From sequence record NC_015249.1: DNA of 39,270 nucleotides, one strand, 5' to 3'. How positions within the stretch are numbered: position 1 is the stretch's first letter; each line of letters starts with the position of its first letter. The DNA is from Escherichia phage 285P. Position numbers and translations under genes: made by a program. Shown piece by piece: positions 1-5,444 of the stretch. The notes below the pieces were generated by a model. That model was not told the DNA's origin. It was given only the letters and a program-made list of their open reading frames with translations, and searched no databases.

Positions 1-145
1 TGCTTATGTTTTCAGTGACAATAGGCTTCGTCCAAAGGGGAATCACTATCTTACTCTCTTTATCAGTCTCTGAGTAATGAGAGAGACAAGTAGAATCGAC
101 TGAGTGCCTATAGTGCCTTAAAGGTGGCTGATAGTCAATAGCCTT

Positions 146-168
146 TAATGCGACTCACTATTGAGAGA
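146..168 (+). promoter_or_regulatory. T7-type phage promoter, left-most (phiOL-like); TAATGCGACTCACTATTGAGAGA
   Basis: Seen in sequence: 17/23 core match to T7 consensus TAATACGACTCACTATAGGGAGA, located upstream of the host early promoters as phiOL is in T7. Confidence 0.55.
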
Positions 169-200
169 AATACTGCTAATGGTCATTCTCTCTTTATGTC

Positions 201-251
201 TACTATAAGAGACTATAAGACCACTTAAAGAGACTTTGAGATTCTTTAAGA
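201..251. repeat. left-end array of ~10-bp direct repeats (ACTATAAGAG x2, ACTTAAAGAG, ACTTTGAGAT, TCTTTAAGAT)
   Basis: Seen in sequence: five tandem decamer-like repeats just upstream of the first TTGACA promoter; analogous to the short repeats near T7 genome ends. Confidence 0.5.
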
Positions 252-258
252 TTGAGGG

Positions 259-288
259 TTGACATTGATAATAGCTTATGAGACTATA
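259..288 (+). promoter_or_regulatory. candidate host sigma70 early promoter (TTGACA, 17-bp spacer, GACTAT)
   Basis: Seen: consensus -35 TTGACA with a non-canonical -10; position matches the T7 A1/A2/A3 cluster to the right of phiOL. Confidence 0.4.
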
Positions 289-393
289 GCAACCGTTGAG
301 AGACACAACGCTACCAACTACTAGACAAGACCACGAGTTATCTAGTAAAGCTGAAGGGTCTCAAGTAGTCATCAACCAGACATACGAAAGTAG

Positions 394-422
394 TTGACTC
401 AACGAAAGCAATAACGTAGTAT
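394..422 (+). promoter_or_regulatory. candidate host sigma70 early promoter (TTGACT, 17 bp, TAGTAT)
   Basis: Seen: -35 TTGACT and -10 TAGTAT with 17-bp spacer. Confidence 0.5.
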
Positions 423-488
423 AGCAGTCGTCAACAACTGGTCGCCCTCTGAAACAACATGAGGTGTCACGGTGAGAAACAAAAGTAG

Positions 489-518
489 TTGACAAGTAGC
501 AACAACAAGATGTAAGAT
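489..518 (+). promoter_or_regulatory. candidate host sigma70 early promoter (TTGACA, 18 bp, TAAGAT), A2-like
   Basis: Seen: -35 TTGACA and -10 TAAGAT; TAAGAT is the -10 I recall for T7 A2. Confidence 0.5.
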
Positions 519-636
519 GTACGACATGCAGTAAGGGTGTAGGGATAGGAACCGAGAAACCTGCCCGTGACCCGCCAAGGATAAGGCACTAGCCGTGAGT
601 CGAATTCGGTCACTCATCGCATAAAAGAATAACAGG

Positions 637-665
637 TTGACAGTCTCCTTTAAAAACTGTAAGCT
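637..665 (+). promoter_or_regulatory. candidate host sigma70 early promoter (TTGACA, 17 bp, TAAGCT)
   Basis: Seen: consensus -35 with weak -10. Confidence 0.35.
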
Positions 666-741
666 GTACCGGAAACATACATAACGTTCTTGTGAAGTCC
701 CACACTGAAAGGGACTCGGTGCTAACAAACCTGCACTTAAA

Positions 742-859
742 GCTCTTTAACAATTTGGACAATAGCACTCTTGAGATGGCGGCACTAGCGATTAACTCAA
801 GGTGACTCGAAAGAGAAGCCTTTATGATAATCACTGTAACCAACATCGAGGCAATCATC
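742..859 (+). other. gene 0.3 leader region, T7 R0.3-like (CTCTTTAACAAT...AACTCAAGG...CCTTTATGATA)
   Basis: Mixed: strongly resembles my recollection of the T7 gene 0.3 leader/RNase III R0.3 region; not verified. Confidence 0.4.
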
Positions 860-1318
860 ATGATTCACACTAAAGAGCAAGCTAACGTTTTCTATGTACT
901 GGTAAGCGCATTCCGTTCTAACCTCGACGATGAGGTCAACATGAGTCGCCACCGCCACATGGTTAACAACCTGCGCAACGCACCGGGTCTTTATGGTAGC
1001 GTTGAGTCTACCGATTTAACTGGCTGTTACCGCGAAGCCATCTCAAGTGCACCAACTGAAGAGAAAACAATCCGTGTACGTTGTAAAGACAAGGCACAGG
1101 TTCTCAATGTCGCACGTCTGGCATGTAATGAGTGGGAACAAGATTGCGTACTGGTCTATAAGTCACAGACTCACACGGCTGGATTAGTGTACGCTAAAGG
1201 CATCGACGGGTACAAAGCTGAACGTCTGCACGGTAGCTTCCAGCGCATCCCTAAAGGTGCACCAATCCAAGGCTGCTTCACGGTTGACGAGTTCGGCAAA
1301 TACTGGCAGGTAGCATAA
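860..1318 (+). CDS. 0.3: S-adenosylmethionine lyase (T3 gene 0.3-type SAMase), anti-restriction
   Basis: 152 aa from internal Met of ORF 824-1318 (MIHTKEQANVFYVLVSAFRSNL...CFTVDEFGKYWQVA); length and sequence match my recollection of T3 SAMase; not acidic like T7 Ocr. GAGG RBS upstream. Confidence 0.75.
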   Translation: MIHTKEQANVFYVLVSAFRSNLDDEVNMSRHRHMVNNLRNAPGLYGSVESTDLTGCYREAISSAPTEEKTIRVRCKDKAQVLNVARLACNEWEQDCVLVYKSQTHTAGLVYAKGIDGYKAERLHGSFQRIPKGAPIQGCFTVDEFGKYWQVA

Positions 1319-1319
1319 C

Positions 1320-1517
1320 ATGGTCGCACTCTTTGTAATCACAATGTACGCTCTGATTGGGGCGTACTTCCTGAGAGACTTCAAGCGTGGTCTGGTTATA
1401 CACAAAGCTAACTTCTCGCACCTGAAGTATGGCTTTCTACCACGATTCACAGTCCGTGAACGCAACGGGCGCTTTAAGGCTAACAAGGTTGGTATCTTCT
1501 ATGTTGCAACACATTAA
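1320..1517 (+). CDS. small early protein with N-terminal hydrophobic helix (gene 0.4-0.6 region)
   Basis: 65-aa ORF starting 1 nt after the SAMase stop; N-terminal VALFVITMYALIGAYFL segment; no recognised homolog. Confidence 0.35.
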   Translation: MVALFVITMYALIGAYFLRDFKRGLVIHKANFSHLKYGFLPRFTVRERNGRFKANKVGIFYVATH

Positions 1518-1621
1518 ACGCAATGTCGGCTTCTACATGGTCTTCGTTGTGTGGCCTACGCTCTGTATTATCTTCATGAAATAACACTCTCACAATCTTC
1601 TCTCTTAAAGGACACAATCTA

Positions 1622-2719
1622 ATGAACTACACCGACATTCAGGCACGTCTGGCAATCATCAAGTCTCTCCCGATTAGCGAACTGGACGAGCGCCAGCCTC
1701 TTCTGGTTGCACTGGCTGCTGACATCGTGAACGGTGAAACGTGTGATGGTAACGACACCGATGGCTCGAACGGCTTGGAGTATCAGGACTGGTGGCACAC
1801 CTTGGGCGCACTCATGCGTGATGCAGGTTTCCACATGTTAGGCAATGGTCACTTCAGTGCGGCCTACTCGCACGAAATGTTACCGGGTCGAGTTATCAAG
1901 GTTGGCTTTAAGAAAGAGGATTCAGGCGCTGCATACACTGCATTCTGTAGGATGCACCAAGGTAGAGCGGGTATCCCTAACGTCTATCACGTAGCACGTC
2001 ATGCAGGTTGTTATACGGTTGTTCTTGACAAGCTGGTAGCATGTGACCGCGATAATTATGACCATGAGGTATACGCTGACCTCGCACGTTACTTTGTGGA
2101 GTCGGATTGCCATGACGCAAGCGACTTTGCACCGGGTGACTACGAGTTCATCGAGACCTGCAAAATGATTCGTGAGTTCTTCAAAGGGATTGCATCTTTC
2201 GACATGCACAGTGGGAACATTATGTTCTCTGAAGAGGGCACACCATACATCACTGACCCGGTTAGTTTCTCACATGACCGTGAACGTGAGGACGGTTTCC
2301 CTCTGGACCCTGAAGCACTGCTGGCTGAGGTCGAGGCTGTAGCGCAAGAACGCATGATTGAACGTTGCCGCAACCGCAAGGCCAAGTGTGACCCTAACGG
2401 CTCCTTTCAGGTTAACCGCAAGGCCGCAATGAAACGCCGCAAGCGTAACCGTAAGTTACGTGCTAAACATGCAGCGGAAGGAATGCACCAGTTTGTCAAA
2501 GGGCGGCTTGAGCGTAGAGCTATTGACCGAAATGAACGCCGTGCTGAGATGTTCATGGGGTCTGCATGGCATTACGCATGGTTGCATAATGGTAACGCAA
2601 CGTTCCGCAAGGTTGAACAAGTGAACGGCCTCAAGTGGCAACTAGGGGACCGCCTAGCAATCCAAGCGGGTCTGCCTCTGAACATTGACAAGTTACTTGA
2701 CGCACAACTGCAAGGCTGA
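1622..2719 (+). CDS. 0.7: gene 0.7 serine/threonine protein kinase / host transcription shut-off protein
   Basis: 365 aa; conserved blocks vs T7 gp0.7 (LGNGHFSAAYSH, VIKVGFKKEDSGAAYTAFCRM, DMHSGNIMFS, YITDPVSFS). Confidence 0.9.
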   Translation: MNYTDIQARLAIIKSLPISELDERQPLLVALAADIVNGETCDGNDTDGSNGLEYQDWWHTLGALMRDAGFHMLGNGHFSAAYSHEMLPGRVIKVGFKKEDSGAAYTAFCRMHQGRAGIPNVYHVARHAGCYTVVLDKLVACDRDNYDHEVYADLARYFVESDCHDASDFAPGDYEFIETCKMIREFFKGIASFDMHSGNIMFSEEGTPYITDPVSFSHDREREDGFPLDPEALLAEVEAVAQERMIERCRNRKAKCDPNGSFQVNRKAAMKRRKRNRKLRAKHAAEGMHQFVKGRLERRAIDRNERRAEMFMGSAWHYAWLHNGNATFRKVEQVNGLKWQLGDRLAIQAGLPLNIDKLLDAQLQG

Positions 2720-2733
2720 TAAGGTGTATCTTC

Positions 2734-2758
2734 AAGGTCGGCACTGACTGCTGGCCTT
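2734..2758 (+). promoter_or_regulatory. RNase III-type hairpin between 0.7 and gene 1 (R1-like)
   Basis: Seen: AAGGTCGGCAC/loop/TGCTGGCCTT forms a ~10-bp stem with G-U pairs; same position as T7 R1. Confidence 0.4.
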
Positions 2759-2792
2759 TATAGATAAACTTTCTTAACAACGTGAGGCAACA

Positions 2793-5444
2793 ATGACTAA
2801 CGTAATCAACGCACCAAAGAACGACTTCTCTGACATCGCTAACGCAATCATGCCATACAACATTCTGGCTGACCATTACGGCGCACAGCTTGCAGCTACG
2901 CAGTTACAGCTTGAGCACGAAGCGCACACTGAGGGTGAGAAGCGTTTTCTTAAGGCAATGGAACGTCAAATCAAAGCGGGTGAGTTCGGTGATAACGCAG
3001 TGGCTAAACCGCTCCTGTCATCTCTCGCACCGAAGTTTATCGAAGCGTGGAACACTTGGTTCACCGAGGTGGAAGCGAAGCGTGGCAAGCGTCCAGTAGC
3101 CTACAATCTGGTACAGAAGGTTGCACCTGAAGCGGCAGCTTTCATCACACTGAAGGTCACACTCGCTTGCTTGACGAAAGAAGAGTTCACCAACCTGCAA
3201 TCGGTCGCCACTAAGATTGGTCGCAGTATTGAGGATGAACTGCGTTTTGGTCGCATCCGTGACGAAGAAGCGAAGCACTTTAAGAACCACGTACAGGAGG
3301 CACTGAACAAGCGCGTTGGTATCGTCTACAAGAAAGCATTCATGCAAGCCGTAGAGGGCAAGATGCTTGATGCTGGTCAACTGCAAACCAAGTGGACTAC
3401 ATGGACACCTGAAGAATCAATTCACGTTGGTGTGCGCATGTTGGAACTGCTCATCGGGTCTACTGGTCTCGTTGAGTTACACCGCCCGTTCGCTGGTAAC
3501 GTTGAGAAGGATGGCGAGTACATCCAACTGACCGAACAATATGTAGACCTGCTGTCTAAACGTGCTGGTGCACTGGCTGCAATCGCTCCGATGTATCAGC
3601 CTTGCGTGGTCCCTCCGAAGCCTTGGACTTCTCCGGTTGGTGGTGGCTATTGGGCTGCTGGTCGCAAGCCTCTCTCTCTGGTTCGTACTGGTTCCAAGAA
3701 GGGACTTGAGCGTTACAACGATGTGTACATGCCTGAAGTTTACAAGGCCGTGAACATCGCACAGAATACTCCTTGGAAGATTAACAAGAAGGTTCTGGCA
3801 GTGGTCAACGAGATTGTGAACTGGAAGCATTGCCCGGTTGAAGATGTTCCTGCTCTGGAACGTGGTGAACTGCCTGTCAAACCTGAAGACATCGACACGA
3901 ACGAGGCATCTCTCAAAGCGTGGAAGAAAGCGGCCTCCGCAATCTACCGCAAAGAGAAGGCACGAGTGTCACGCCGCATGAGCATGGAGTTCATGTTAGG
4001 TCAGGCCAATAAGTTCGCACAGTTCAAAGCTATCTGGTTCCCAATGAACATGGACTGGCGCGGTCGTGTGTATGCTGTGCCGATGTTTAACCCGCAAGGC
4101 AACGACATGACCAAAGGCTTGCTGACGCTCGCTAAAGGTAAACCAATCGGTGTCGATGGGTACTACTGGCTGAAGATTCACGGTGCTAACACTGCTGGCG
4201 TGGACAAGGTGGACTTTGCAGAACGCATCAAGTTCATTGATGACAACCATGAGAACATCATGAGCGTAGCTGCTGACCCGATTGCTAACACTTGGTGGGC
4301 CGAGCAAGACTCTCCGTTCTGCTTCCTCGCGTTCTGCTTCGAGTATGCAGGTGTGCAACACCACGGGATGAACTACAACTGCTCTCTTCCGCTGGCGTTC
4401 GATGGTAGCTGCTCCGGTATTCAGCACTTCTCCGCGATGCTCCGTGATGAGATTGGTGGTCGTGCGGTTAACCTGCTGCCGAGCAAGGAAGTACAGGACA
4501 TCTACCGCATCGTTGCGGAACGTGTGAACGAAATACTGAACCAAGATGTTATCAACGGGACCGACAACGAAGTAGAGACCGTGACCAATAAGGACACCGG
4601 AGAAATCACTGAGAAGCTCAAGCTGGGAACTAAGGAACTGGCTGGTCAATGGTTAGCATACGGTGTTACTCGTAAGGTGACTAAGCGTTCCGTTATGACC
4701 TTGGCGTATGGTTCCAAAGAGTACGGCTTCCGTGACCAAGTGCTAGAGGATACCATTCAGCCAGCTATCGACGATGGCAAGGGCTTGATGTTCACTCAAC
4801 CGAACCAAGCGGCTGGCTACATGGCTAAACTGATTTGGAACGCGGTAACGGTGACAGTGGTCGCAGCGGTTGAAGCAATGAACTGGCTGAAGTCTGCGGC
4901 TAAACTTCTAGCTGCTGAAGTCAAGGACAAGAAGACCAAAGAGGTTCTCCGTAAGCGCTGTGCGGTACATTGGGTTACTCCTGATGGCTTCCCGGTCTGG
5001 CAGGAATACAAGAAGCCAGTACAGACCCGCTTGAACCTGATGTTCTTAGGCCAGATTCGTCTACAGCCTACCGTGAACACCAACAAGGATAGCGGGATTG
5101 ATGCTCGTAAACAGGAGTCAGGTATCGCACCTAACTTTGTTCACTCAATGGATGGTAGCCACCTGCGCATGACCGTGGTTCGCTCCAACGAGGTCTACGG
5201 TGTGGAATCGTTCGCACTGATTCACGACTCCTTTGGTACTATCCCTGCTGATGCTGGCAACCTGTTTAAAGCAGTGCGTGAAACGATGGTGAACACCTAT
5301 GAAGAGAACGATGTACTAGCAGACTTCTATGAGCAATTTGCTGACCAGTTGCACGAATCACAGCTTGACAAGATGCCTGAGATGCCAGCTAAAGGTTCTC
5401 TGGACCTGCAAGAAATCCTTAAGTCAGACTTTGCGTTTGCCTAA
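2793..5444 (+). CDS. 1: T7-type single-subunit DNA-dependent RNA polymerase
   Basis: 883 aa (same as T7 RNAP); long identical stretches to T7 gp1 as recalled (PMFQPCVVPPKPWT, DGSCSGIQHFSAMLRDE, HDSFGTIPADA, C-terminal FAFA). Confidence 0.97.
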   Translation: MTNVINAPKNDFSDIANAIMPYNILADHYGAQLAATQLQLEHEAHTEGEKRFLKAMERQIKAGEFGDNAVAKPLLSSLAPKFIEAWNTWFTEVEAKRGKRPVAYNLVQKVAPEAAAFITLKVTLACLTKEEFTNLQSVATKIGRSIEDELRFGRIRDEEAKHFKNHVQEALNKRVGIVYKKAFMQAVEGKMLDAGQLQTKWTTWTPEESIHVGVRMLELLIGSTGLVELHRPFAGNVEKDGEYIQLTEQYVDLLSKRAGALAAIAPMYQPCVVPPKPWTSPVGGGYWAAGRKPLSLVRTGSKKGLERYNDVYMPEVYKAVNIAQNTPWKINKKVLAVVNEIVNWKHCPVEDVPALERGELPVKPEDIDTNEASLKAWKKAASAIYRKEKARVSRRMSMEFMLGQANKFAQFKAIWFPMNMDWRGRVYAVPMFNPQGNDMTKGLLTLAKGKPIGVDGYYWLKIHGANTAGVDKVDFAERIKFIDDNHENIMSVAADPIANTWWAEQDSPFCFLAFCFEYAGVQHHGMNYNCSLPLAFDGSCSGIQHFSAMLRDEIGGRAVNLLPSKEVQDIYRIVAERVNEILNQDVINGTDNEVETVTNKDTGEITEKLKLGTKELAGQWLAYGVTRKVTKRSVMTLAYGSKEYGFRDQVLEDTIQPAIDDGKGLMFTQPNQAAGYMAKLIWNAVTVTVVAAVEAMNWLKSAAKLLAAEVKDKKTKEVLRKRCAVHWVTPDGFPVWQEYKKPVQTRLNLMFLGQIRLQPTVNTNKDSGIDARKQESGIAPNFVHSMDGSHLRMTVVRSNEVYGVESFALIHDSFGTIPADAGNLFKAVRETMVNTYEENDVLADFYEQFADQLHESQLDKMPEMPAKGSLDLQEILKSDFAFA

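Follow-up and report, generated by a model that had tools for sequence, protein, structure and literature searches.

The question raised by this locus is whether a short open reading frame in the early region of Escherichia phage 285P is a gene and, if so, what its product may do. The window (the whole stretch of DNA analysed, 39,270 nt of sequence record NC_015249.1) covers nearly the whole genome of a T7-like phage of Berlinvirus type, and its first 12 kb shared 92-96% identity with PhiV-1, PZJ0206, BA14 and Kvp1. In the first-pass annotation, the frame was described as a 65-aa ORF directly downstream of a SAM lyase gene, in the slot occupied in T7 by genes 0.4-0.6. The ORF was present as described, and the elements of the locus relevant to its setting were the following.

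860 to 1318, plus strand: SAM lyase gene (gene 0.3), the upstream neighbour; Pfam S-AdoMet_lyase, E=9e-44.
1307 to 1311, plus strand: Shine-Dalgarno-like CAGGT, read from the sequence, 8 nt 5' of the gene 0.6 ATG.
1320 to 1517, plus strand: gene 0.6 of T3 type (0.6A in the nomenclature of BA14 and phiYeO3-12), 65 aa and a stop codon, starting with ATG.
1622 to 2719, plus strand: gene 0.7 serine/threonine kinase, the downstream neighbour; PHROG 2828, E=1e-180.
2793 to 5444: RNA polymerase gene, downstream of the 0.7 kinase gene.

The SAM lyase gene was 100% identical to that of BA14 (tblastn), in which gp0.3 is encoded by 459 nt and ends in the same junction as in the window. The lyase stop codon TAA (1316-1318) was followed by a single base and then by the gene 0.6 ATG (1320-1322; TAAcATG), and the CAGGT site was located within the end of the lyase gene. 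This junction, AATACTGGCAGGTAGCATAACATG, was unchanged across all Berlinvirus loci; outside Berlinvirus, AAGGT was found 6-8 nt 5' of the gene 0.6 ATG in other genera. An interval of 104 nt separated gene 0.6 from the 0.7 kinase gene. Two sigma-70-like promoters were present 5' of gene 0.6 (394-422 and 489-518). A scan of positions 1-3000, a range that includes the start of the RNA polymerase gene, gave no terminator-like site. The gene order 0.3 - 0.6 - 0.7 - 1 agreed with that of T3, T7 and BA14. Nearly all related loci had the class I arrangement of gene 0.3 (encoding SAM lyase or Ocr, as gene 0.6 was found behind either one), then gene 0.6, then the 0.7 kinase. The kinase gene was found 3' of gene 0.6 in all loci bearing the C-terminal motif described below except three (L020, L061 and L069), and the stored DNA of L061 ends early. 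From this synteny we infer that gene 0.6 belongs to the class I, host-transcribed early region. Gene 0.6 thus does lie, flanked by gene 0.3 and the 0.7 kinase gene, where T7 has its genes 0.4-0.6.

The homology search that had been proposed as a check showed that the ORF is no orphan, but a well-conserved gene already annotated in T3, phiYeO3-12, BA14, Kvp1 and FE44. The window protein matched PHROG 2385 (E=2e-27), its residues 1-65 aligning to profile positions 7-66 of 70. It was identical (100%) to the protein labelled 0.6 in Erwinia phage FE44, approximately 94% identical to BA14 gp0.6A and Kvp1 0.6, and 66-71% identical to the products of T3 gene 0.6 and phiYeO3-12 gene 0.6A. By these matches the ORF is the Berlinvirus copy of T3-type gene 0.6, a family with a long history of annotation; because the family carries annotations (T3 0.6, phiYeO3-12 0.6A) and an identical protein has been deposited, the gene itself was already known. 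It was detected by tblastn in 573 phage records, in 568 of them at a coverage of at least 80%. The hosts were mostly those of Klebsiella phages, and phages of Escherichia, Salmonella, Pectobacterium, Yersinia, Erwinia, Serratia and Citrobacter were also represented. A large protein collection held 174 homologous clusters at 90% identity, and the copy in phage LL2 carries the label "putative transmembrane protein". A profile search run exhaustively against 1.84 billion representative proteins returned 11 matches, all of which belonged to the T3-type gp0.6 family or were fragments of its members; neither a remote relative nor a host protein that could be mimicked was found among them. The most distant member of the family, P0166, had no informative neighbours on its 1.9-kb contig. 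In the searchable literature, no experimental work on T3-type gp0.6 was found, the relevant entries being statements on T7 gp0.6 and MreB and genome-annotation tables.

The substitution analysis comprised 52 distinct 65-codon orthologues, taken from 55 loci. Variation was concentrated in third codon positions, 61 of which were variable out of 65, compared with 33 first and 25 second positions. The median dN/dS was 0.098 for the whole gene 0.6 frame, and 1.5 and 3.3 for the other two frames. By region, dN/dS was 0.33 in the hydrophobic segment, 0.11 in residues 20-40 and 0.017 in residues 41-65, and in codons 41-59 the entropy was 1.04 at third positions and 0.11 at first and second positions. 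The length of the protein stayed at 65-68 aa in nearly all of approximately 70 loci, and upstream of the ATG the frame remained open for just one to three codons in most loci. Judged by its substitutions, gene 0.6 was shown to be a genuine protein-coding gene under strong purifying selection. Lack of conservation of the frame in relatives, which the first-pass annotation had named as grounds for doubt, was not what was found. A reading of the region as an RNA element was also considered and was rejected, there being no Rfam match at E up to 1 and an unremarkable RNA fold for gene 0.6 (z=-1.36).

Constraint on the sequence did not mean that the gene was universal. Gene 0.6 was a frameshifted remnant in one phage (L071), was reduced to its last 24 codons in another (L072) and had its N-terminus replaced in a third (L062), and T7 itself has no T3-type gene 0.6. 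The loss or truncation in a few phages, together with the absence from T7, means that the gene is dispensable in at least some settings. Where it was present, it diverged little: the identity between the window and Klebsiella phages was 70-78% for gp0.6, 35-37% for the SAM lyase, 68-71% for the kinase domain and 50-63%, in partial alignments, for the N-terminus of the RNA polymerase.

Two parts of the coding sequence account for the anatomy of the protein.

1323 to 1373, plus strand: codons 2-18, hydrophobic segment at the N-terminus, for which a signal-anchor or transmembrane helix is predicted (from composition, alignment and AlphaFold2).
1440 to 1514, plus strand: codons 41-65, near-invariant C-terminal motif PRFTVRxxNGRFKANKVGxFYxATH (from alignment, and dN/dS of 0.017).

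The hydrophobic N-terminus and basic C-terminal part noted at first pass were both evident in the composition. Residues 1-18 had a GRAVY of 2.22 and not a single charged residue, and were followed directly by RDFKRG; residues 19-65 had a pI of 11.4, with 11 K/R against 2 D/E. The Kyte-Doolittle profile (17-residue window) peaked at 2.12-2.24 at positions 1-2, after which came R19, K22 and R23. A hydrophobic stretch of at least 17 residues with a positive cluster on its C-terminal side, the pattern by which bitopic proteins are predicted, was therefore present. The alignment of homologues fell into three parts. In the first, the N-terminal segment, the sequence varied and yet was hydrophobic in 39 of 39 aligned homologues; the second was the positive cluster, in which D20 and G24 were invariant; the third was almost invariant and read P41 R42. 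T44. R46.. N49 G50 R51 F52 K53 A54 N55 K56 V57 G58. F60... T64. Seventeen of the 19 invariant alignment columns were within codons 41-65, and the window protein had all 19 of these as well as the 13 near-invariant columns. The alignment thus showed a protein with 18 N-terminal residues that vary but are always hydrophobic, and 45 C-terminal residues that are very basic and hardly change. The uncharged 18-residue N-terminus followed by RDFKRG corresponds to the reverse signal-anchor pattern, and by the positive-inside rule the protein is predicted to be N-out/C-in. A TMHMM transmembrane domain has been reported for the gene 0.6 homologue of phage AP5 (PMC4283147), and the suggestion that the product is a small early membrane protein gained in plausibility, the anchor being a predicted one.

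The N-terminal helix was conserved on one side. The near-invariant positions Y10, I13, F17, D20/F21, G24/L25 and H28 share one helical face, and conservation along the helix had a period of 90-100 degrees (permutation p=0.012). Conservation of one face of a long helix suggests a specific helix-packing surface. The best AlphaFold2 model built from the family alignment (pLDDT 89.7) had a helix at residues 2-27, strands at 31-36 and 40-44 and a second helix at 59-64; the remaining four of the five models had a pLDDT of 63-76. A Foldseek search of the model against the PDB gave no analogue (best E 1.1), and the search against BFVD returned only the phiYeO3-12 0.6B entry, which is of the same family. 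A sequence-profile search of the PDB found nothing at E up to 10, the Pfam matches of gp0.6 (SAF, DUF3149) were noise below the threshold, and no family was found in NCBIfam or PADLOC at E up to 1. No target was indicated by either the fold or the sequence.

Taken as a composite, these features point to an accessory protein that is made early, is anchored in the membrane and binds a conserved partner, a reading that we consider reasonably probable. Gene 0.6 would be expressed early, as a class I gene, through transcription by the host RNA polymerase from the leftward promoters and translation directly after that of the SAM lyase. The N-terminal helix would insert in the inner membrane as a signal-anchor, with a one-residue N-terminus outside and, according to the positive-inside rule, the basic domain in the cytoplasm. 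This cytoplasmic mini-domain, predicted to comprise an extension of the helix, a beta-hairpin, the NGRFKANKVG loop and a short helix, would bind the partner at the membrane. On this reading the partner has to be one that is conserved throughout Enterobacterales, given how little the motif differs among phages of Escherichia, Klebsiella, Yersinia, Erwinia, Salmonella and Pectobacterium. The tight constraint wherever the gene is present argues for a very conserved partner, either a core host membrane component or a conserved phage protein, and binding of such a partner would in turn give gp0.6 a role in taking over the host or some other accessory role. A phage protein such as the 0.7 kinase, the gene of which is downstream in nearly all loci, could be the partner instead of a host protein.

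As had been claimed at first pass, the window protein had no match in BLASTP to T7 gp0.4 (E=20) or gp0.5 (E=52). For T7 gp0.6A the claim was upheld for the family as a whole but not for the end of the protein, where the last 13-20 residues were aligned by BLASTP (KANKVGIFYVATH in the window against KINKIGSGYDRTH in T7, 7 of 13 identical). Homology to gp0.6A, as raised by this tail match, was examined and rejected. A profile-profile comparison (hhalign) of 39 T3-type with 30 T7-type sequences gave a probability of 0.3% (E=0.21). The T7-type family corresponds to Pfam PF26851, with the core YVMPIHTxNGATVCTPDGFAMKQRIERLKRELRxN, which is unrelated to the T3-type protein; a precomputed Pfam match was present in 0 of 120 of the T3-type homologues listed, and PF26851 was present in 36 of 36 T7-type homologues. 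Most PF26851 members end soon after the core and are without the shared tail, and for this reason the tail in T7 looks like a leftover of recombination. In the DNA alignment, homology between T7 and Kvp1 set in at approximately AACAAG (the N55-K56 codons), included the stop codon and continued within the following gene. This alignment is most simply read as an exchange of one gene body for the other within the slot, the joint lying immediately 5' of the point in the overlap at which the following gene starts; the exchange would have been made in place, since the final ~13 codons and the downstream start that overlaps them are still present in T7 gp0.6A. T7 gp0.6A therefore resembles gp0.6 in its slot, in its similar size (53 aa) and, at the DNA level, in its tail and overlapping +1-frame ATG, and differs from it in having no hydrophobic segment.

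A passage in a preprint, which cites its own reference 22, reports that T7 Gp0.6 binds MreB (bioRxiv 10.64898/2026.09.14.751387). As the names 0.6 and 0.6A are given to two unrelated proteins, the MreB-inhibitor activity cannot be transferred to the T3-type protein by homology. It could still be that gp0.6 is a stand-in for gp0.6A by non-orthologous replacement, that is, a membrane-tethered inhibitor of elongation or division acting on MreB/MreCD/RodZ or on the divisome. In addition to the shared genomic slot with its in-place swap of the gene body and the reported MreB binding, this alternative is favoured by the gp0.4-like (FtsZ inhibitor) domain encoded in the adjacent slot of PP47, and an Enterobacterales-wide target would fit the invariance of the motif. 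Against it are the dissimilarity from the gp0.6A core in sequence and profile and the lack of a hydrophobic segment in gp0.6A. Moreover, the sharing of a slot is weak evidence, as the neighbouring slot holds unrelated genes, including those for Endonuclease_7 and Bro-N proteins. We regard this alternative as unlikely. Doubtful, too, is a bolder version in which gp0.6 would be a membrane-anchored inhibitor of an Enterobacterales-wide envelope or cytoskeletal machine, a counterpart of T7 gp0.6A with a different fold, and in which the 3' end of the gene (Shine-Dalgarno-like site, ATG and first five codons) would form a fixed "launch pad" for a hypervariable host-takeover slot.

A second specific function, to which we likewise assign a low probability, is superinfection exclusion or anti-defence, in which gp0.6 would block the entry of a second phage's DNA or neutralise an abortive-infection effector at the membrane. 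A function of this kind is carried out by small, early membrane proteins, among them T4 Imm. The protein is early, small and predicted to be membrane-anchored, and its gene adjoins those for SAM lyase or Ocr and for the 0.7 kinase, which are known anti-defence genes. However, gp0.6 had no PADLOC match and no similarity to characterised exclusion proteins, and its extreme conservation, with a single allele over many host genera, is unlike what is typical of anti-defence genes, which tend to be as variable as the adjacent cassette slot.

The evidence on the N-terminal helix can also be read without a membrane. AlphaFold2 showed a single continuous helix from residue 2 to 27, and the conserved positions Y10, I13 and F17 might just as well form a stripe for self-association, in which case gp0.6 would be a soluble oligomer with the N-terminal helix as the core of a small helical bundle. 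The 18 uncharged residues with a GRAVY of 2.2 and the positive cluster that follows are nonetheless a classic signal-anchor pattern, and the TMHMM call in the AP5 homologue (PMC4283147) stands against a soluble protein as well. This arrangement is decidedly improbable.

The 3' end of gene 0.6 carries a second set of signals, which bear on the start of the next gene. Two further features of the window are needed here.

1485 to 1489, plus strand: Shine-Dalgarno-like AAGGT in the N55-K56-V57 codons, read from the sequence, 11 nt 5' of a +1-frame ATG.
1501 to 1584, plus strand: +1-frame 27-aa hydrophobic ORF, MLQHIKRNVGFYMVFVVWPTLCIIFMK, filling the variable slot between genes 0.6 and 0.7.

The +1-frame ATG at 1501 lies inside the Y61-V62 codons (TAT GTT), 17 nt before the end of the stop codon. 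In related loci, the AAGGT site reads AAGGT(G/A/T)GG. The ATG was present in 44 of 44 loci with at least 100 nt between gene 0.6 and the kinase gene, and was absent from 14 of 14 loci in which fewer than 100 nt separated genes 0.6 and 0.7. In these short-gap loci the codons were TAC ATC or similar, and the protein read FYIATH. In four T3-type loci, TTG was found at the next +1-frame codon, which is the start of gene 0.65 according to the T3 record. The genes started at the +1-frame ATG were mutually unrelated. They comprised a 27-31-aa hydrophobic peptide, the T3 0.65 type, the Kvp1 0.62 / T7 '0.6B' type, unclassified proteins of 59 aa and 77 aa, one protein of the Endonuclease_7 and one of the Bro-N type (E=1.6e-25 and E=3e-10, respectively) and PP47 orf03, which has a T7 gp0.4-like domain (43% identity over 46 aa, E=4e-10). 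The match of PP47 orf03 to gp0.4 served as the positive control for the gp0.4 comparison described above. The cassette proteins share their first five residues, M-[LS]-Q-[RH]-[TI], because the codons for these lie inside gene 0.6. The last 20 nt of gene 0.6 thus carry a Shine-Dalgarno-like site and a +1-frame ATG whose presence tracks that of a downstream gene, and their role in starting whatever gene fills the slot is better supported than the role proposed for the protein.

The same overlap has been annotated differently, as a '+1 frameshift' (phiYeO3-12 0.6B; "possible" in T7). If this were correct, the 65-aa protein would be only the N-terminal part ('0.6A') of a fusion, '0.6B', with the +1-frame ORF. 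The records of phiYeO3-12 and T7 ('possible gene 0.6B') do contain joined 0.6B CDS features, and the +1 frame of the window is open across the last 30 codons of gene 0.6. In 23 loci, however, the +1 frame is open for merely 8 codons before the gene 0.6 stop, and no obvious slippery site was seen at the overlap when the sequence was read by eye. In addition, the ATG and the Shine-Dalgarno-like site track the downstream gene exactly (44/44 against 0/14), T3 annotates a UUG start for gene 0.65, and the downstream genes are unrelated cassettes. The association of the ATG with the cassette favours independent, coupled initiation, and the fusion is very unlikely. As for a frame that encodes no functional protein and is kept only for the ribosome-binding and start signals of its neighbours, the 3' end does carry those of the next gene, but the probability is negligible, this reading being already refuted by a substitution pattern that places the constraint on amino acids (61 of 65 third positions vary, with dN/dS of 0.017-0.33 along the ORF). 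The steady length of 65-68 aa in nearly all of the ~70 loci also speaks against it.

In the window, the slot is filled by the 27-aa ORF. The ORF had 31 codons in L015 and 27 in the remaining six phages compared, and the hydrophobic core and a [VI]WP motif were kept in all seven. In pEa_SNUABM_57 both were kept though 15 of the 21 non-overlapping codons differed. The ORF has no CDS annotation in the records of BA14, SWJM-03, PcCB251 and pEa_SNUABM_57. Its conservation suggests that it is probably a real gene for a micro-membrane-protein. Together with the trap in the naming of gene 0.6 and the conserved start signal for a variable slot, this unannotated ORF is what is modestly new in the analysis.

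These results matter in several respects. The label '0.6A' invites a wrong transfer of the MreB-inhibitor function between families that are unrelated apart from a 13-residue tail. Although gene 0.6 is an ordinary gene, annotated in all well-curated relatives, few early proteins are as conserved as gp0.6 in T3-, Berlin- and KP32-like phages, which include hundreds of Klebsiella therapy candidates. As its near-invariant cytoplasmic motif implies a very conserved target, gp0.6 would be a reasonable candidate for screens of phage proteins for antibacterial targets. The junction at the end of gene 0.6 is a conserved entry to a variable slot, and may be useful for accessory-gene mining and for engineered insertions.

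Among known systems, the lysis protein E of phiX174 has an N-terminal transmembrane helix with an important face and a basic cytoplasmic tail, and binds the host protein MraY. It resembles the predicted gp0.6 in architecture only: protein E is encoded by a late microvirus lysis gene and has no known sequence relationship to gp0.6, whereas gene 0.6 is early and the window phage has late lysis genes of its own. T7 gp0.5 is, like gp0.6, a small hydrophobic early protein from the same genome region, but it has 47 aa, is hydrophobic almost throughout and is without a basic domain. The relatives within PHROG 2385 are those of T3 (NP_523298), phiYeO3-12 (gp0.6A, NP_052068), BA14 (gp0.6A) and FE44 and Kvp1 ('0.6'). 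The T3-type relatives and the window protein have in common a length of 65-67 aa, the hydrophobic N-terminus, the PRFTVRxxNGRFKANKVGxFYxATH tail and a +1-frame start of the next gene that overlaps the 3' end of gene 0.6. They differ at the flanks. In the window and in other Berlinvirus the ATG abuts the SAM lyase stop codon, whereas T3 has a 73-nt spacer with an annotated RNase III site and E. coli B promoter, and in phiYeO3-12 the gap before gene 0.6 is 267 nt long and contains the additional gene 0.45 as well as an RNase III site. On the other side, the cassette downstream of gene 0.6 encodes a 27-aa peptide in the window and is a 0.65-type gene in T3.

The hypervariable slot before the 0.7 kinase gene draws its start signals from its upstream neighbour: the Shine-Dalgarno-like site, the ATG and the first five codons of the variable gene, or cassette, all come from the 3' end of gene 0.6. 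The features concerned are as follows.

Window 1485-1517: junction with the Shine-Dalgarno-like site, the ATG and the first five cassette codons; the equivalent was located in loci L001-L076, the compared phage loci.
Window 1501-1584, + strand: unannotated hydrophobic 27-aa ORF, read in the +1 frame; its start lies within the last codons of gene 0.6.
Window 824-1318, + strand: SAM lyase gene, as the mechanical ORF.
Pectobacterium phage PP47 (L076) 1213-1663: distant gene 0.6 homologue and cassette.

The junction ATG was present in all 44 loci with a cassette and in none of the 14 without one. At the next +1-frame codon, four T3-type loci carry a TTG, and it is at this TTG that the T3 record places the start of gene 0.65. 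The overlapping +1-frame ATG was retained even in the distant PP47 homologue of gene 0.6 (59 aa, 41% identity), where the cassette encodes a T7 gp0.4-like domain (E=4e-10, 43% identity over 46 aa) placed after the common MSQRI N-terminus. Elsewhere the cassettes included an Endonuclease_7 protein (L016 and L029), a Bro-N protein (L041), proteins of the 0.65 and 0.62 types, and 59-aa and 77-aa proteins of no known kind.

The 27-aa ORF is 27 codons long in all but one of seven phages, the exception being L015 with 31. Its hydrophobic core and a [VI]WP motif were conserved in all seven, even with 15 of 21 codons changed. It was not among the CDS features of the BA14, SWJM-03, PcCB251 and pEa_SNUABM_57 records. 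For the SAM lyase gene, the 459-nt gene annotated in relatives corresponds to the ATG at window 860, the mechanical ORF starting at 824; the T3 record annotates a further in-frame start, internal to the gene.

The T7 locus (L004, NC_001604; 737-1073) was compared with that of Kvp1 (L003; 1252-1470). The free-standing gene 0.62 of Kvp1 is a homologue of the portion of the T7 'possible gene 0.6B' that lies past 0.6A, and this portion has an in-frame ATG of T7's own (MTERTDGLKKGY...). The reference T7 sequence and Kvp1 are set apart by an indel of 1 nt (T7 nt 1895/1896), which alters the C-terminus; the intact form may be the longer, Kvp1-like ORF.

Natural decay of gene 0.6 was observed in three loci. 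The gene is a frameshifted remnant in Erwinia phage vB_EamP-L1 (L071), and its N-terminus has been replaced in L062. In Klebsiella phage SH-Kp 152410 (L072) it is reduced to the last 24 codons and the downstream start, an arrangement much like that in T7.
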